Of a stretch of DNA of 64,000 bases, positions 4,997 to 40,479 are shown piece by piece (within the stretch, counting starts at the first letter, position 1; every line of letters starts with the position of its first letter). Source of the stretch: Octopus vulgaris (lineage: Eukaryota); assembly GCA_951406725.2 (NCBI GenBank), contig OX597826.1:13330001-13394000 (forward strand), given 5' to 3'. Position numbers and translations under genes: made by a program. The notes under the pieces were generated by a model. It saw only the letters and a list, made by a program, of their open reading frames with translations. It did not search any database and was not told the origin of the DNA.

Positions 4997-5925
4997 CAAA
5001 AGAATGTAATTATGTATATACATACATATACATATGCACATACACACATACATGTATGTATACGAATATGTTGGGTGTGCGTATGTCAGTACACACATAC
5101 ACACACACACTTACACACATACACACATACACACACACACTTACACACATACACACACGCACTAACACCAACACAGATATGCACCTGCTCGTGTGAGAGC
5201 GTGTAATTTTATGATCACGCGAGAGCAGGTGTTTATGTTTTGTGTGTGTGTGTGTGTAAGTGTGTATAAGTGTGTGTGTGTGTGTGTGTGCATGTGTGTG
5301 TGAATTCAAACAAAGAAAGCAGGAAAGCCACAAGTCAGACAACAAAGTATTCTCCAGCTCTCGCCCTCAATGGAGGAACGGAGAAAATAAACAGCCACAA
5401 CCGCTTAATCACTGTCTCCTTCGCTCCCCCTTCCTCTCTCTCTCACTCAACCTCTTTCTTACTCTCCTTTCCCCCGCTCTTTTCTTCCATTCTTCCTTTC
5501 TTCTTCTTCTCTCACTTTTTCCTTCTTTGACATACTTATTAAAGCATATATTATTACACATACCTACAAACGTATGTGTCTGTGTGCCTCTGAGTACACA
5601 CACACACACACACACGCACACACACACACACATACACACACATACACACACATATATATATATGCATGTTTATATACGTATATATACATATATTTACAAA
5701 CAATAGTATGAATGAACACGTACACATATACACACACAGATATGTGGGTGAGTGTCTTTGTGTGTGTGTGTCTTTGTGTGTGTGTGTCTTTGTGTGTGTT
5801 TGTGTCTGTGTGTGTGTCTTTGTGTGTGTCTGTGTGTGTGTCTTTGTGTGTGTGTCTATGTATGCATGTATACATTTATGTGTATATACACGCATACGTG
5901 TTTGTGTGTGTAAGTGTGAATGTTC

Positions 5926-5956
<31 letters not shown>

Positions 5957-6103
5957 GTGTGAGTAAAGAAAGAAGGGTAAAACACGACGTATAAAAAAAA
6001 TCAGTTGTATATAGAACTCAATAATAGGTTATAGAAAATAGACTATATATATATATTTTATTTCATGGTGAAATTAAGTCGAATGCGGGAAATAGCTAAA
6101 AGC

Positions 6104-6537
6104 GGATCTTTTCGGTTTGAACGGCAGTTTTTTCTAGCGGTGTCATATGAAATTGTCACCCATAATTATGACCCTAGTATCGATCTATTGCATTTCAATT
6201 TGTTTTAGGTTTAGGGTTAGTGTTAGGGGTGGGGTGAACGGTATATTTTTTTCTTCACAAATGTAAATAAACCTAATCTGTTTCTTAAACGAGGGACATA
6301 TTCATACGGCACAGAATGTTTTTTTACCTCAATAGACGTCATTGATTGGTTGAAATTGCAGAAATTGAAGAAAAAAAAACAACAAATATCTTACAAACTA
6401 TAGAATTTTTTCAATAAAGCCAAGAGAAAAAGATGTTTTATAAACACATTCTACGGATCTACCAGTATACGAAGTTAAAATTTTTTTGGTTAGCTAGAAA
6501 TTATGTTAAAAACTGCCGTTCAAACCGAAAAGATTCC
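6104..6537. mobile_element. Same TTAGGG-containing MITE (copy 2)
   Basis: Near-identical to 3727-4158 including the TIRs. No TSD recognised. Confidence 0.85.
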
Positions 6538-6977
6538 CAGTCAGATGAAGAAATGAAACAATTTTATTTTCCTGTACAGCATAAACTACAAAATTCGTTG
6601 ACTAAGCATTTTAAACAATAGAAATCTCGTTGACGTTACCGGAACGCGACATTATGTAATATCGTCTGCCAGTCGTCGTTCGCTCTCATGTCTTTTTGAT
6701 GTGTGACGAGTAAAAAGAGAATATTTGCTTTATTGCGGATCAATGATGAGTTTTTTTTTTTCCATTAAGAAAGAGATGTTTGTGTTACGTGCATTTCTGT
6801 TTGGATTTTAGCCTTTCAGCAATAAAAATATTTTGATTTGCGACGACAAAAACAGATATCAGTTCTAAATATTTAGGAAAAAAAGAAGGTATATTCATTT
6901 ACTCTCGTTTACACTCCCAAACTCCCAAACGCTCGTAGTCACCCAGACACACACACACACACACACACACACACGTA

Positions 6978-7160
6978 TTGGGTTGGCAAGAATGTAATTT
7001 CAGTTTTTTAGTGTAAAATAAAAGTTTTTTTTTTCATACGTAGGAGTGGCTGTGTGGTAAGTAGCTTGCTTACCAACCACATGGTTCCGGGTTCAGTCCC
7101 ACTGCGTGGCACCTTGCGCAAGTGTTTTCAACTAGAGCCTCGGTCCGACCAAAGCCCGTC

Positions 7161-7236
<76 letters not shown>

Positions 7237-8245
7237 TTGTGTGTCTGTGTTTGTCCCCCCAACATCACTTGACAACCGATGCTGGTGTGTTTACATCCCC
7301 GTAACTTAGCGGTTCGGCAAAAGAGACCGATAGAATAAGTACTAGGCTTACAAAGAATAAGTCCTGGGGTCGATTTGCTCGACTAAAGGCGGTGCTCCAG
7401 CATGGCCCCAGTCAAATGACTGAAACAAGTAAAGAGTATACAAAGAATGAACTTTAATCAATTCCATATTTTCCAGTTTGCTCGATGATTTTTTGCCATC
7501 TTTCTGGCAACTTCATGATTCTGCGCACATCGAACGTCTGGTCCTTACCAGCCCAAAACTGAAGCAAGTGCGAATTCAGGTCATCATCATTATGGAAAGC
7601 TTTACCATTCAAAGAATTTTGAAAACTTCGAAATAAATCGTAATCTGATGGTGCAAGGTCAGGGCTACATGGTGGATGTAACATCACTTCCCAACCAAGG
7701 TCCAATAATTTTTCACGAGCTAGACGTGTGTGGTCTAGCGTTGTCATGGTGGAACATGATTCCTTTACGATTTGCCAGTTCTGACCATTTTTCTTTGATT
7801 GCTTCCTCCACTTTCATTAGTTGTTGACAGTAAACATCTGAATCGATCGTTTGGTTCCTTGGAAGCAGCTCAAAATACACACCAAGTTAACAGCATGTCC
7901 TTTTTTTGATGCAATTCAGCTTTCGATGTCATTTGTGCTGGTTCATTACGCTTGGGCCATGATCGTTTTCGATTAATGCTATTGCAGACAATCCATTTTT
8001 CATCACAATTGATGATTCGTTTCAAGAAAGGTTGATTTCATTGCGCTTGAGATGCATATCGCAAACCTTAATTCGTTGTGTTAAGTGAATCTCTTTCAGT
8101 TTATATAGAACCCAAATATCGAGCTTCTTAACGAGTCCAAGACATTTTAAGTGATTTTCAATTGTTGTGTGTGATACATTTAACCTCTCTACAATCGCTT
8201 GCACAGTCATATGACAATCAGATTCAATTATGGCTTTGATTATTG
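6978..8245 (-). mobile_element. Mariner transposon relic (transposase pseudogene), interrupted by a SINE
   Basis: ORF 7454-7747 contains HPPCSPDLAPSDYDLFRS...LPERWQK (mariner YSPDLAP-D motif). ORF 8022-8210 contains an HTH and KKLDIWV. TIR-like TTGGGTTGGCAAGAATGTAATTTCAG follows TA at 6976-6977. Frameshifted and 5'-truncated at a (TAA)n tract. Confidence 0.9.
7036..7440 (+). mobile_element. SINE group A (tRNA-derived head, internal TA/TG microsatellite), nested in the mariner 3' end
   Basis: AGGAGTGGCTGTGTGGTAAG...GGTTCAGTCCC (A/B boxes)...GACTAAAGGCGGTGCTCCAGCATGG...GAAACAAGTAAAGAG. Other copies: about 9095-9340(-), 9402-9785(+), 19285-19630(+), 19715-20100(-), 22005-22345(+), 22926-23365(-), 27652-28005(-), 31640-31930(-), 61530-61905(-), 63365-63575(+). 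Confidence 0.85.
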
Positions 8246-8247
8246 AA

Positions 8248-8248
8248 C

Positions 8249-8304
<56 letters not shown>

Positions 8305-8625
8305 TAATAATAATAATAATAATAATAACAACAACAACAACAACAACAATCTCATGTTTTAAAACAAACAATTTTCGTATGGGTTTTTAGGCATTCACTA
8401 GTACAACACTAAGTACAAAACCAAATATATGGCACCCTAGGCATAACACCAGCATGAACTTCCAACTTGTTGTCTTTTGAGGTCTCTGGGTGATACTTGG
8501 AGCCAACTTGTGCAAATGTAAAGCAAAAGTCAAACATAGAATAATAATAATAATAATAATATTAATAATAATAATAATATTAATAATAATAATAATAATA
8601 ATAACATCGAAAAATACCTTCGGAA
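8248..8625 (+). mobile_element. Short insert flanked by (TAA)n tracts, probable 3' end of an R4/Dong-like LINE
   Basis: About 200 bp of unique sequence embedded between TAA arrays. TAA-repeat targeting is characteristic of Dong elements. No coding motif was recovered. Confidence 0.35.
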
Positions 8626-12811: not shown

Positions 12812-12868
12812 AGCTAAAAGATGGAAGTGATAGTATTATATTTATTCCTTCATTACGAACATTTAAAT

Positions 12869-13216
12869 CAGTGATTCTCAAACATTTTTTATCCATGGAC
12901 TCCTTTCATTATTAATTCATTATTATGGGCCCACTTAGCTATTTAATGCTTAAAAGCTAGTTTTATAGAAACTTCTTTCAAAATTCCTATTTTGCTTCCC
13001 ACACGTTAACTGCAGACAGAACTATGTAAAATGTTAGAGAAAGAAACCTAGCTGTTTCTTGCAATGCATACCAAAGCATACAACTAACGCAAATCTTTTT
13101 TTCAGGGACCGTTAAAATACTATTGTGGATTCCAAATTTAGTATTTTGTTACGGGGACAACCCAAAATCTTATACGGACCTTCAAGGGCAATATGGAATC
13201 TATTTGAGAGCCACCG
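12869..13216. mobile_element. hAT-like MITE
   Basis: Ends CAGTGATTCTCAA and TTGAGAGCCACCG resemble CAGTGGTTCTCAA hAT TIRs. Imperfect 8-bp TSD ATTTAAAT / GGTTAAAT. Confidence 0.55.
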
Positions 13217-13261
13217 GGTTAAATGGTGCTTGGTTCAGACATATGAATATACACGATTGTA

Positions 13262-14100
13262 GATACAACATATTACATGGGAGCTCCTCTCTTGTAATGT
13301 TAAAAGGATCGTAATGAAGGGAAAAGTATAATAGCATCATCTCCATTCTAGAACTTAACTGCATAGGATTCCATGACTAATAATTTATCCCTGGAATTTC
13401 ACTTCGTATTGGACGATTTCTGCTAGAGAAAATAGTTCAGATGTATGCACTGTTTGTTGGTACATGCAGGAGTGTTCGCTGAGGAAATTACTTGAATTTT
13501 GTAAATATTTGGGGTCAAAATTCACTCCAGAGAATTATTTTCAGCAGAATTATTTCCGGTATTTTTGGCGCGCCAAAACGAAGACTTTTGAAATATAACC
13601 CTAAATGTAATTGGTAGAACTATATGCATCTTCAATCTCATGTGGACGTCCCGTGTATAGTTCTGCAAATTATATTTTGCTATGACGGTCACACTGATGA
13701 ATTGCGGACATTTACGTAAGTGGTAACAATGAAACCGGTTTTGTGACTAATCATTATATTTTGTATCTTTTCATTTGTCTTGCTCGCTTACGTTCTGATG
13801 TTTACTGAATTTTCCTGAGAACAATATTTTCTTAGTGGTCACACCATATGGGGTCTACATCTAACGTAATGATACAACATATTACGTGGGAGTTCCTCTT
13901 GTAATGTTGAAACGATCGTAATGAAAGGATAAGTATAATAGCATCATCTCCATTCTAGAACTTAACTGCATAGGATTCCATGACTAATAAATTATTCCTG
14001 GAATTTCATTTTGTAGAGGAAATAGTTCACATGTATGCATTGTTTGTTGATACATGTAGGTGTGTTCGCAGATGAAATTGCTTGAATTTTCTAAATATTT
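13262..14100 (+). repeat. Direct repeat pair (about 230-250 bp, 13262-13510 and 13871-14100) enclosing a hammerhead-like motif
   Basis: GATACAACATATTAC(A/G)TGGGAG...CTTGAATTTT(G/C)TAAATATTT is present twice, about 610 bp apart. Confidence 0.85.
13688..13747 (+). ncRNA. Type I minimal hammerhead ribozyme-like motif
   Basis: GTCACA-CTGATGA-ATTG...CAAT-GAAA-CCGG-TTT-TGTGAC: 6-bp stem I, 4-bp stem II base, palindromic stem III loop. There is one extra T relative to consensus. Confidence 0.6.
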
Positions 14101-14229
14101 TTCTATTCAGATATGTATATATCTGAATATCCAGTACGATCGCTTCATGCAACTCCATTTTATTGAACAATACAATCATTACATCAATTTAAAATGTAGA
14201 CCAATCTTCAGCTTCACAAAAACATAGAA

Positions 14230-16800
14230 TTTAATTAAATAAGAACAGATGCCCACATTAGAGTAATTATACCTAAAATCTCCAAGAAGTTAAGGAGATA
14301 GACAAAGAACATTCTCTACTTCAGCATAGAAGTTACTAAGATTATCAAGAAGACTCTGTCTGCCACTGATATTTTTTCTTATGGGGTCAGTTTTAATTTA
14401 TAGACTAGTTTATCAAATCCCTTGTATATCTAAGGCTGAGAGAACAGAGGGCAGTATCTGTTAGAGGTAGGGCTGAGGCAGTAGACAGAGATTCTAGTTG
14501 GTATAGTCATAAAAGAATCAAGATTTATTATAAGCAATATCATGAGGTTTAGTAAGGGAAAACTTAAAACAAGATATTAGCTGATAATTAAGGCGGTTGC
14601 CCACTAGCAGACTATTGATAATGAAACAGGGCAAGTCTTTTCATATGGTACTATAGTTAAATATTTTGAGCAATATTGCTATGTATACAGTTAAAGTTTA
14701 GGGTTATTCAAAGGATTATTAAGAAGAATATTATAACAAAAGGATAGAAATTTATGAATACTTTTGAGTATATATCAAACTTCTTACCACAATAATGGCA
14801 GTGCATCAGCATGGCCACAGCTCTGAGCTGAAACTAGAGAGAACAAAAAATAGAAGGAGGAAAAGAAATTATCCAGAAATAGTTTACATATTGTGTACTT
14901 AATTACTAACTCATCAGATGGTGTCTGTGAATATTGATTAACTGGTATATACTGTTATTAATAAAGGAGTATTGGAGTAAAGCAACATGCTAATTATATA
15001 ATAATAAAATTTTAATCTAATCAATATTTTTCTATAAGTAGTGAATATCCCAGTATAGTTTTATATAAGCTAAGTATGAATTTATTGAGGTACAAAAATT
15101 ATATTAATTTATAAATAAATAAAGGCTGATTATAAAACAATAAAGAAATAAAATAAAATAATCAAGTAGGGCAGAACACCATAGAAAAGGAAATAAAATG
15201 GCTTAATTACTAATACTATGGTAAAGTATTTGTAGCTTGTTAACACCAATAGAGAAGATTTTTTAGAAAAAGTATGATAATTCAAAATATATTAAACTAA
15301 AAATTATATATTTACTTATTTAGCTAATATCAGTAAAAGACTGATGTTTGGTATTGCCTAAAGGAATATTTAAGTTATGGAACAATCATATTTTTACACT
15401 AATCTTTTTTTAAAATTAAGAGTTATATTATAGGTTTAAGAAGTTATTATTGTTACTCCCTACATGATATTTATAGTTTCTTAGTGGTACTTGTTTTGAA
15501 GGGTTATTTATATAAAGGCCTTTATAAATACTAAGATCAGGAGGGTAGAACCATTTAAGAAAGAGATTAATCAAGTAATTTCTAAATATCATTTCAAACA
15601 ATATTATTATATAAAGTTAAAATTTAGGGTAATCAAGAAGATTATTAAGAATGACATTTTAATGAAAGGATAAAACTTCTTTGGATATTTTGAGTATATA
15701 CCAAATTTTACCACAATAGAGGGAGGAAAAGAAAATTGCAAAGAAATAGTTTAATATTTATTTACTTATTACTTAACTAAGCATTAACTTATTATATGGT
15801 TTCTATGGGGATTGCTCAATTGGATTTGAATGGTATTTAATAAGGGAGCAACTGAGGTTAAAGAACACGTCAACTATATACTGATTTAATTAAATCGAAC
15901 TATTTTAAGATGTACAGATACCGGTATGACCTTATATAAGCTGAGTACGAATTAATAGGGGTACAAGGATCAGATTTATTTAAGGCTACTATAAAATAAC
16001 AATAATAACAATAACAAAAATGATCAGTTAGGATAGAGCATCATGGGAAAAAGAATAAAAACAGCCTAATCACTAAAAACCATAATAAAATAGCTATACC
16101 TTATTAACTCTAATAGCAAGTATTCATAGAAAATGTATAATAATTTATGAGCTAAAAATTGTTAATTAACATATTTAGCTTATTATGATCAGGACCAAAA
16201 CCCGGTATTGGTTGAAAAAATAATTGTTGTTAAAAGGACATGCTAATCATATACTAATATTAAATTAAGAGGTTTAATATAGATTTCAAAAGTTGTGGTA
16301 ATCCGTAAATGATATTACAGTTTCTTAGGGGTACTTAATTAGAAGGGCTGTTTGTATAAAGCCAATATAAATACCAAAATTAAGAGTACGGAACACTTTA
16401 AGAAAGGGATAGAAAAACTTAGTTACTAAAACTATTTTAAACAACATGTCATTATTGTATAAAGTTAAAATTTAGGGTTACCAGGAAGATTTATCATTGA
16501 GGTGAGACAAAAAATTTACTATAAATTAGTTAAATTATAATTTAAGCAGTTTAATTTTAAATTGTGAAGATACCTCTATTGCTATTTATAAGCTAAATAT
16601 GGATTTATAGGGGTACAAAAATTTAGGTTTTTCTAAAGGTAATTATAAAGTATTAAAATGATCGGGTAGGGTAGAAACACCATAGGAAAGGATATAAAAG
16701 CTTAATTACTGAAATCATGATGAAATATAAATACAACTTAGTAACTTCAATAGAGAAGATTTATAGAAAATATGTAATAATTCAAGTATTTGAAATAAAA
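14230..16800 (+). pseudogene. Fossil intronless coding region with three diverged about 850-920-bp tandem repeats; unknown K/I/N/Y-rich protein
   Basis: Recurrent translated blocks on +: I(K/Q)LKFRV (about 14685, 15611, 16458), FEYI.NF...IEGGKE, A(K/E)Y..I.VQ, YSFL..L..KG.LYK, with many third-position differences between copies. Numerous in-frame TAA/TAG codons and frameshifts. Confidence 0.65.
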
Positions 16801-16933
16801 AATTGTTTATATATATATATATCAGGCATGGGTATATGGTAAGAGGATAGCTTTGCAATCATATGGGTCCTGGTTAACTCCTACTGCGTGGCCCCTTTGC
16901 CAAGTTTCTTCTGGTACATCCTCGGGCCGGCCA

Positions 16934-16970
<37 letters not shown>

Positions 16971-18023
16971 AAATGTAAGTTTTAACTGCTATTTCTAAAT
17001 TTCAGTATGTGGTGAAGCAAATTTTTGCTTAACCCTAATTATAACTATACTCATAATTATAAAATTTTATATATAAGTTTACCGATAATGGTTCTTTTAA
17101 CAAACCGAACTACTTGGTAAAATTATTAATTATTAATTAATTAATTAATTAATTTGACCCTTTATTATTATGGATATATATATATGCGATGGGCAAATTA
17201 TAACCATTTTATGTTTTTAATTTCGCCCATGTCCATTGTTTGTTTTAGATTTTGTTGACTGGACGCATAGTATGGTAGGATCAGTTGGGCACCCTCTGTG
17301 AGAACAACAGCAACATGACACAATTCACTCTGTCAGAAATTTGGAAACGATTTACTGTACTGCTTGGCATGTGGTCCAGAAGTTAGAATATGAACATTTC
17401 AGAGTATTTGGGTGTCACCACACCCTGTGTATATATAATTATATATATATTAACCCATACGTACATGTGTGTGTGTGTGTGTGTGTCTTTGTGTCTGCAT
17501 TTGTCCTCCTCAACCGCTTGATAACCGGTGTTGGTGCATTTACGTCCCCGTGAGACTGATAGAATATACACCAGGCTTTAAAATGTACTGGGTTCAATTC
17601 ATTCGACTAAATCTTCAAGGCTGTGCCCCAGCATGGCCACAGTCTAATTACTGAAACAAATAAAAGATAAAATATATAGATTATATAGGCACAAAATAAC
17701 GTCTTTTACTCTCTCTCTCTCTCTCTCTCTCCCTCTCTCCCTCTCACTAGAAACATACAAACACGATGTAGTTGTTGCACACAAGCTGGCCAGATGGTGA
17801 TTTCAATTCACAGACAGGTTGTGCACCGCATTCTTAAGCAAGACACTCTTTTCCACTTTGCTTCAGTTCATGCAGATGCAAATGGGTATCACTGCAGTGG
17901 TCTGGCGCTCCGTTGAGATGGACTGTTTGCCTGCGGTGTGGGAGCATTCGAAAGTTAAGACGTTAAGACAATGCGAGGAGCCGCACCAGCGATACCATGA
18001 TATCCGATAATCGATATCATGAT

Positions 18024-34733: not shown

Positions 34734-35720
<987 letters not shown>

Positions 35721-38619: not shown

Positions 38620-40479
38620 AAAATGGAGGGGATACAGAAATAGTATACATCAACTGTTAGACATTATATTATGTCTATTTATTTATTCTAAAACATTTAT
38701 GAGAATAACTACATATGTAAAGACTGCGTATTACATACATACGTACCAGTAATTCATAGAATAAAGAACAGTTTCTTACGGCCGTTTCTGCCAAGAGGTC
38801 GCAATACCCCACATGTTATTTCCATCTCTTCAGTCTTCTATAGGGATCGGTAGATAAAATTAGGGTATTGGGTGTGCCTCTAGGCTTCATTAGAGAGTTT
38901 AAAAGGGGGATTAAAAAAGTTCAGAGGGCTAATACATGTATATATAGATATACATATACACACTCATATATATATATATATATTTAAAAAAAGGAGATGT
39001 CGAACACGAGTGGTGATATATAAAAAAGGAAATGAAGAAAATGCTGACAAATAATTGAAGTAATTTAAGTAATTTAATTAGGTGAAAGTTCTTTTTACCG
39101 GTTGCGCATTTGTTATGCTTATCAAAATATAAAAGAGAGATTAGAGTCTGTCTCTTATATGTGAAAAAAAGAGGCTCCAGAGTTGTTTGGGATTTGCTTG
39201 GTTTCGCGCCTAAAATTTTGATTGGTCATTATGAAGGGGTCACGTGAATGTTTGAATGGAAGTTGGTGTTGGGGTAAGAAAAAAGGCTCCGAGAAGTTAA
39301 AATTTGGCTAGTGTCCCGCCTAAAATTTCTTATTGGCCATAATAAAGAGGTCACGTGAATGTTTAGAATTTTCGAAAATAGTGTTGTTGAAAATTCTTAT
39401 TGTTCAGGCTGGTCAGTAGACGTCATGTGGATATTTTAAATAGCTTTTTAGCGCGTAGTTAGGGAGTGTATTTTCCGCTTGACTGGATAAGTAAGTTCGT
39501 TTAGAACAGGGAGAGCTGTATGTATGTATGTGTGTGCGCGCGCGCGCGCGTGTGTGTGTTTATATGTATGTTGGGGCGCGCGCGCGTGTATATATGTGTG
39601 TGTGGGTAAAATTTTCAATATTTATAGTTCTGCTGGCCTTGTGCCTGTATCGGGAAGCAACGTATTTGTGTGAAGTCAATATTTACAGCCATTTCCAAAA
39701 AATAGTGTTGGATGTTTTGCACCCGTATTCAATTATGTGTATGTGTGGAACCATATATTTGTGTGTGTCATGGTGTTAATATCTGGGTAAAGGTGTGTGT
39801 AGGGTGTGTGCAGGTGTAAGTGTGTTTGTTGTGGGTTCGTGTTAGGGGCATGTGTTTAGAAGTGGTCTGTATTTATTAATAAGGTGGGATTCCATGGTTA
39901 TTCGCTGGGTATGAGTGGCATTGTCTTTAAATTTGTAGAGGGGAAAGATTCTAAAATTGGGATGGAGTTGTGCGGCACAGGTATCAATATGTGCACTAAA
40001 TGCTATTTTTCTATATTCCTGTATTTTTATTTGGGATCTGTGGACAGTCATGCGTTGGCGGAGGCTATTTTTTGTTTGGCCTATGTAGTGTTCATTACAG
40101 CCCGAGCAAGTTAAGACATATACTAGGTTTTCTGATGCGCATGTGAAGTTGTGTTTTACTGTGAAACGTTGTCCTTGTTTAAAAAGGAATTCCGGACAGC
40201 CAAATTTTAACTTCTCGGAGCCTTTTTTCTTACCCCAACACCAACTTCCATTCAAACATTCACGTGACCCCTTCATAATGACCAATCAAAATTTTAGGCG
40301 CGAAACCAAGCAAATCCCAAACAACTCTGGAGCCTCTTTTTTTCACATATAAGAGACAGACTCTAATCTCTCTTTTATATTTTGATAAGCATAACAAATG
40401 CGCAACCGGTAAAAAGAACTTTCACCTAATTAAATTACTTAAATTACTTCAATTATTTGTCAGCATTTTCTTCATTTCC

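Follow-up and report, generated by a model that had tools for sequence, protein, structure and literature searches.

A decayed copy of a dispersed repeat family with an array of ~375-bp monomers of probable protein-coding origin

What is the repeated, stop-containing sequence at about positions 14230 to 16800 of the window (the whole 64,000-nt stretch of DNA analyzed here), and how did its stop codons arise? An earlier note had pictured a single foreign fossil gene, viral, Polinton-like, or horizontally acquired, in which the TAA and TAG triplets reflected either CpA-to-TpA hypermutation or a donor that reads them as glutamine. The analysis presented here points instead to a dispersed repeat of which this stretch is one decayed copy. 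The repeat is likely a non-autonomous mobile element, and its array of ~375-bp monomers probably arose from protein-coding sequence of the standard code. We place the probability of this reading at roughly 0.55.

Three related units were found at ~14664–15585, ~15590–16433, and ~16434–16812, the last of them incomplete, in agreement with the three diverged repeats of about 850–920 bp described earlier; the protein-like peptide pairs quoted from them are also present. Units 1 and 2 are 73% identical across 821 aligned columns. Tiled self-alignment disclosed a second offset of ~375 bp that the earlier note had overlooked: the 850–920-bp unit consists of two diverged ~375-bp monomers, a and b, and a short spacer. 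Monomers of like type (a/a, b/b) share 67–71% identity, those of unlike type 48–55%, and they are arranged in the order b tail, spacer with SINE, a1, b1, spacer, a2, shortened b2, and a3. The array therefore comprises five monomers in a higher-order unit; an internal tandem array is thus present, a feature that is not specific to Helentrons. Self-alignment and profile matches revealed no further copy of the unit in the 500 bp to the left of the array. The features are listed below.

14126–14292, no strand assigned: left segment of the repeat copy, common to a far more abundant repeat; left edge approximate, loose ends before 14132 being other copies that continue differently; depth ratio (defined below) 5,200–8,500 in bin 14160–14292.
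14293–14657, plus: non-repeated internal segment containing most of a 150-codon frame (openness P 0.21); no homologue; depth ratio 625–1,411.
14658–14790, plus: end of a b-type monomer followed by the first part of the spacer, where unit 1 begins; 77% identity to 15591–15718, profile match E 0.034.
14791–14852, plus: later-inserted host SINE-type 3' fragment, flanked on both sides by AATA and skipped by contigs in 4 of 4 runs.
14853–14931, plus: spacer c, copy 1; match to 15715–15807, E 0.0004.
14932–15304, plus: monomer a1 (~375 bp); identity to a2 67%, to a3 71%, to b monomers 50–52%.
15305–15680, plus: monomer b1; identity to b2 71%.
15681–15809, plus: spacer c, copy 2, from self-alignment and a profile match.
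15810–16175, plus: monomer a2, from the monomer comparison.
16176–16491, plus: monomer b2, right end shortened, from self-alignment and the monomer comparison.
16496–16821, plus: monomer a3, from self-alignment, with a spacerless junction to b2; a3 pairs carry no coding signal, and the right end of the copy lies beyond the 12830–16805 region compared with contigs.
16823–16933, plus: host SINE-type repeat at the right border of the array, with 15 further matches within the window (best E 5e-15).

Just to the right of the array, at 17189–17236, lies an imperfect inverted repeat, possibly the end of a small transposon.

Contigs from four public DNA runs, carrying four organism labels, were aligned to 12830–16805 at 80% likeness. 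Between 8,259 and 15,810 records per run were placed across this 4-kb stretch, SINE parts included, and position 15230 was covered by 12–42 distinct contigs (range over the four runs). We expressed abundance as the ratio of summed contig depth to the median depth of the long pieces listed; summed depth is not equal to copy number. Beyond the two leftmost segments given above (bins 14160–14292 and 14293–14691), the ratio was 101–397 in bin 14958–15755 and 30–75 in 15756–16686, while the left flank was near single-copy (0.5–2.2 in bin 13229–13494). The pattern was alike in all four runs under the four labels. Twenty long pieces differed from the window by 10–17% (median 12%), and no piece among those listed covers the whole stretch. 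The left edge falls near 14126, beyond which other copies continue differently. Contig counts, depth, and divergence show that the stretch is one copy of an interspersed family with many old, diverged copies, a picture that replaces that of a single foreign fossil gene. The SINEs and microsatellites of the window have the look of an octopus genome. For an Octopus host, and at the rate of PMC13282606, a halved pairwise distance of 0.064 would correspond to ~18 million years, an age that both the 80% likeness threshold and the selection of long pieces bias downward. The available part of PMC13282606 dates Octopus repeat expansions at about 18–25 million years.

Segment 14126–14292 has a SINE-like abundance, yet no second copy of it occurs in the window; AATAAA is found inside it on the minus strand at 14158–14163. 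It could form one end of the element, or be a distinct repeat. At the left junction, a hairpin at 14104–14129 has a perfect 11-bp stem and a 4-nt loop, and its right arm enters the many-copy sequence. Further left, a low-depth direct duplication (13262–13509 and 13871–14099, 89–92% identical in ungapped parts) encloses a many-copy piece at ~13495–13890, and a very abundant repeat piece at 12963–13095, for which a search of the window gave no second copy, has a summed depth of ~300,000 in three runs.

Elsewhere in the window, a minus-strand frame at 39842–40285 contains a GIY-YIG domain (E 2.9e-7), and we take it to be a likely fragment of a Penelope-type retroelement. Two open stretches on the minus strand at 7454–8351 resemble a mariner-type transposase that has been broken; weak helix-turn-helix matches (E 0.0003–0.009) were obtained for the second stretch and none for the first. 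At 34734–35716, (ATA)n followed by (AAG)n extends over ~930 bp, which is unusually long for a trinucleotide tract.

The element has a GC content of 26%. Purines make up 54–59% of its plus strand versus 48% in the left flank, and 11 CpG dinucleotides were observed versus 43.8 expected, the lowest among the 1-kb bins scored; the earlier description of a purine-loaded, CpG-poor stretch was therefore accurate. According to the available part of PMC9476566, octopus transposons are mostly unmethylated and satellites somewhat more methylated. Since transposons are so reported, our best explanation leaves the CpG loss unaccounted for. The SINE-type piece of ~58 nt at 14791–14852 weakly matches 10 other places in the window (E 0.001–0.48), and in each of the four runs there are contigs that lack it and pass directly from 14782 to 14849. 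The AATA on either side could be a 4-nt target duplication. The fragment itself and the SINE-less copies bear out the claim that a SINE 3' end was inserted here and that the segment is really integrated.

Evidence that the array once encoded protein comes mainly from units 1 and 2. Their mismatches show period 3 (P 0.002–0.005 by shuffling; this and all other coding-test P values are uncorrected for the number of tests, and a3 was omitted after the data were seen). Periodicity together with the best-frame synonymous share exceeded neutral simulation at matched identity under three gap settings (P below 0.005 to 0.035). Both also stayed high in 300 neutral simulations that started from a real copy (P 0.003–0.007), the share being 0.30 versus 0.23 in the null. 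Taken separately, the a1/a2 half and the b1/b2 half lean toward coding as well (synonymous share, P 0.04). In the conserved blocks of a1, a2, b1, and b2, a plus-strand phase contains 2–4 stops in 312–356 codons versus 9–10 in shuffles (P 0.005–0.035), and the minus strand of the same blocks has no stop-poor phase.

Other tests gave less or nothing. Pairs that include a3 lack a coding signal against neutral simulation (P 0.5–0.8), a stop-poor phase in all five monomers together reached P 0.055–0.14, and another best-frame statistic for units 1 and 2 gave P 0.22. Phases picked from mismatch periodicity alone were not depleted of stops, and no period-3 base composition was seen. Differences in the most open frame of unit 2 comprise 29 synonymous and 110 non-synonymous ones. 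The earlier claim that differences recur at synonymous sites survives as a synonymous excess between units 1 and 2, but not in that frame or in the a3 pairs, and 3-nt periodicity is likewise present between units 1 and 2 but absent in the a3 pairs.

These mixed results leave room for a dispersed element with a satellite-like, purine-skewed array that never coded and whose protein look stems from AT-rich composition, which we judge somewhat unlikely but the most serious competitor. It sits well with gaps between units 1 and 2 that are mostly off-frame (21 of 27 are not multiples of 3), with mismatches spread 70/63/72 over the codon positions of the most open unit 2 frame, with a longest open run of 57 codons versus 59 in shuffles, with the signal-free a3 pairs, and with the lack of a homologue among 1.84 billion proteins (one frame searched). 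It is harder to reconcile with a period-3 pattern and synonymous excess in units 1 and 2 that hold with both nulls used and at all three gap settings (P below 0.005 to 0.035), with P 0.025 across the five monomers, and with the restriction of the stop-poor phase to the plus strand. We conclude that the residual plus-strand coding signal is weak, that the array was probably once protein-coding, and that its frame is not constant along the array.

The upstream frame of ~150 codons with point stops that had been proposed does exist at 14233–14682 (5 TAG, 2 TAA, and 1 TGA), but its openness is at chance level, with 8 stops versus 13 expected (P 0.21, allowing for its being the most open of the three plus frames). 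A 2-nt gap at 14514, within the frame, occurs in 43–58% of the aligned depth. Two minus frames of the region have 8 and 7 stops.

Searches for relatives used protein queries that carried X at stops. In Pfam, the six frames and the upstream frame gave two weak matches (E 0.04–0.05), and ten stretches gave two more (E 0.07 and 0.11). PHROGs, word-based protein searches, viral contigs, and phmmer against 1.84 billion protein representatives (one plus frame) returned no match, and the best PDB sequence had E 0.18. At the nucleotide level, Rfam and phage DNA gave no match, plasmids gave one 47-nt AT-rich match that was taken as chance, exact patterns were absent from metagenome, viral, and genome contigs, and prokaryote DNA held no relative. 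These blank searches carry little weight because the frames break every 15–30 codons. Single-sequence folds had mean pLDDT values of 36 and 43, uninformative and below what a fold search requires. In our view, a short stretch of the a monomer resembles the part that precedes the H-x-x-R motif of Crypton recombinases. A Crypton tyrosine recombinase (R-H-R-Y tetrad) was considered and rejected, with no Pfam match at E up to 10 and no H-x-x-R shared by the monomers. A word-based literature search found no description of the repeat family. The curated Octopus vulgaris library of PMC13282606 could already list it under some name.

Another reading is that an endogenous DNA virus or Polinton-like element of the standard code left this relic, which later spread as a non-autonomous derivative. 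Such a relic would be intronless and could well be AT-rich (26% GC), CpG-poor, and purine-loaded, as the stretch is. AT-rich DNA viruses commonly carry tandem paralogous short genes. The CpG loss may even predate the host, given the mostly unmethylated state reported for octopus transposons in the available part of PMC9476566. However, Pfam, PHROGs, viral contigs, phage records, and protein representatives yielded no match, which weighs little where frames break every 15–30 codons, and no viral hallmark gene (capsid, protein-primed polymerase, integrase, or other) was matched, again at low sensitivity on such frames. No terminal inverted repeats occur among the 25 longest of 232 pairs in region 13900–17450, although the copy may be truncated. 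The viral or Polinton-like suggestion thus finds no support in any search, within the sensitivity that decay allows, and we regard it as improbable.

We then turn to the stops. Their recurrence at the same positions in different repeats had been read as a sign of a special cause. Shared stops are present, but equally so in all frames. Of the 33 stop-holding columns of the most open frame, 12 carry a stop in unit 1 and unit 2 alike; for the two remaining frames the counts are 22 of 45 and 27 of 54. TAA is identical between the units at 23 of 63 places, similar to ATA (23 of 65) and AAA (24 of 67). As sharing is as frequent in the other frames and TAA is kept like ATA and AAA, the coincidence follows from common descent and requires no special cause.

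If the donor of the cargo gene read TAA and TAG as glutamine, as a ciliate might, many apparent stops would be sense codons. TAR triplets are far more frequent than TGA, but this is so in all six frames. Units 1 and 2 agree at 9 of 20 TAG sites, compared with 3 of 20 for the reverse complement, CTA. TAR faces CAR in 7 of 54 columns of one plus frame, and one gap setting placed 4 TAR/CAR in the 167 codon pairs of the chosen phase versus 1 in 335 elsewhere; this excess proved unstable, other gap settings giving 3 versus 2 and 2 versus 5. TAR is also undepleted in the periodicity-chosen phases, yet a phase with ~1% stops exists in the conserved blocks. Translation with table 6 raised the synonymous share by 0.023 versus 0.029 in the null (P 0.66), and the longest TGA-free plus run is 186 codons versus 282 in shuffles (P 0.96), a test that frameshifts weaken. 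When single-base partners of TAR were tallied with all frames pooled, CAR accounted for 6 of 39, the others including TTR (7), TGR (6), and TAY (10), and the chosen phase held an unstable 2–4 TAR/CAR pairs. Recoding of the cargo gene is unlikely, the numbers being small and the frame not fixed, and the earlier proposal of a recoded donor is given very little credence here. Slightly less credible still is the fuller scenario in which an element of an undescribed class spread a gene for a ~125-residue tandem-domain protein, lacking any known relative, in several related animal species, from a donor with TAA/TAG as glutamine such as a ciliate parasite. Should TAA and TAG act as glutamine in many copies, they would record a gene transfer from a recoded eukaryote to an animal germ line.

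The other earlier proposal was that repeat-induced point mutation (RIP)-like CpA-to-TpA hypermutation made the stops. RIP is called at a product index above 1.15 and a substrate index of 0.75 or less in the available part of PMC7882544. The element as a whole has a product index (TpA/ApT) of 1.11 and a substrate index of 0.99; unit 1 comes closest (1.18 and 0.87), and substrate indices range over 0.87–1.20. TG/TA sites differ between units at 36 of 52 places, and CA/TG contexts show an odds ratio of 2.3 (P 0.001); but the excess sits in TG/TA. CA/TA, at 27 of 49, differs little from CT/TT, at 20 of 40, and a similar bias is seen in pairs of host SINEs (odds ratio 2.0, P 0.054). TAG is under-represented (55 versus 70 expected). 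Changes private to the window copy were taken from 40 of 605 differences listed, of which 6 single-contig and 8 flank rows were dropped, leaving 26 multi-contig rows inside the element, with the majority state taken as the older one. A>G and T>C together make up 11 of these 26, G>A and C>T together 4, and one change is CpA to TpA. Three create a stop triplet, none of them from CAR, and four remove one. In this small sample, 5 of the 7 listed A>G changes (14895–16711) follow T and are thus TpA to TpG, the reverse of the direction proposed; a host mutation bias is a possible reason for this trend. With these indices and a single CpA-to-TpA change among those listed, hypermutation is the least credible of the readings considered, and the stops fit ordinary point and indel decay.

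We return to the decayed, standard-code repeat copy as the preferred reading. Dispersal is the ground for calling it a mobile element: searches turned up neither element ends nor a transposase motif or homologue. HINEs, which are non-autonomous Helentrons, have tandem arrays in the oyster Crassostrea gigas (PMC7492417; PMC4067079), and gene fragments interrupted by stops and frameshifts are among the sequences that Helentrons can carry (PMC4067079), both sources being available in part. By analogy with such short tandem arrays and broken gene fragments, we tentatively guess that the carrier could be a rolling-circle (Helitron/Helentron-like) element. A search for sub-terminal inverted repeats gave five AT-rich 11-mers at 1 mismatch, in four separate places and without a null comparison, and the hairpin at 14104–14129 lies mostly outside the high-depth part. 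The element is not filed as a Helentron since the defining ends were not found.

The proposed history would begin with a coding monomer of ~125 codons that was duplicated into the a and b types, after which the a-b-spacer unit would have been duplicated again. The sequence would then have lost its function and been carried to many sites as cargo, most plausibly by rolling-circle transposition. The window copy would later have gained the SINE insertion and ordinary point and indel mutations, while stops at matching positions would have been inherited from the sequence before duplication.

As it stands, one copy of an old unclassified family has little significance, large animal genomes containing many such families. 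The faint coding signal without a known relative and the strong CpG loss in a lineage with reportedly mostly unmethylated transposons are mildly notable. A new transposase or viral protein, if many copies revealed one, would allow the family, possibly hundreds of copies strong, to be classified.

Compared with known systems, the element shares with sequences subject to fungal RIP (PMC7882544, available in part) its AT-richness, slightly raised TpA, and CpG poverty, and differs in a substrate index far above the threshold and in private changes that lack a C>T bias. It differs from Crypton and DUF3504 sequences, as far as the available part of PMC3212892 describes them, in that the a-monomer stretch is tandemly repeated here. 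The sub-terminal inverted repeats (11–12 bp), microsatellite, and 3' palindrome of HINEs could not be assigned in the element, and its monomers of ~375 bp, in an a/b higher-order unit and 48–71% alike, contrast with HINE monomers that are mostly 140–180 bp long and 8–21% diverse (PMC7492417, available part). It nevertheless resembles the Crassostrea gigas HINEs in being a dispersed mollusc repeat with a short array of a few monomers behind a shared flank. The element also resembles the unclassified ("unknown") repeats of the Octopus vulgaris library, as given in the available part of PMC13282606, in being an old interspersed family whose half-distance of 0.064 lies near the ~18–25 million-year expansions, if the host is Octopus.
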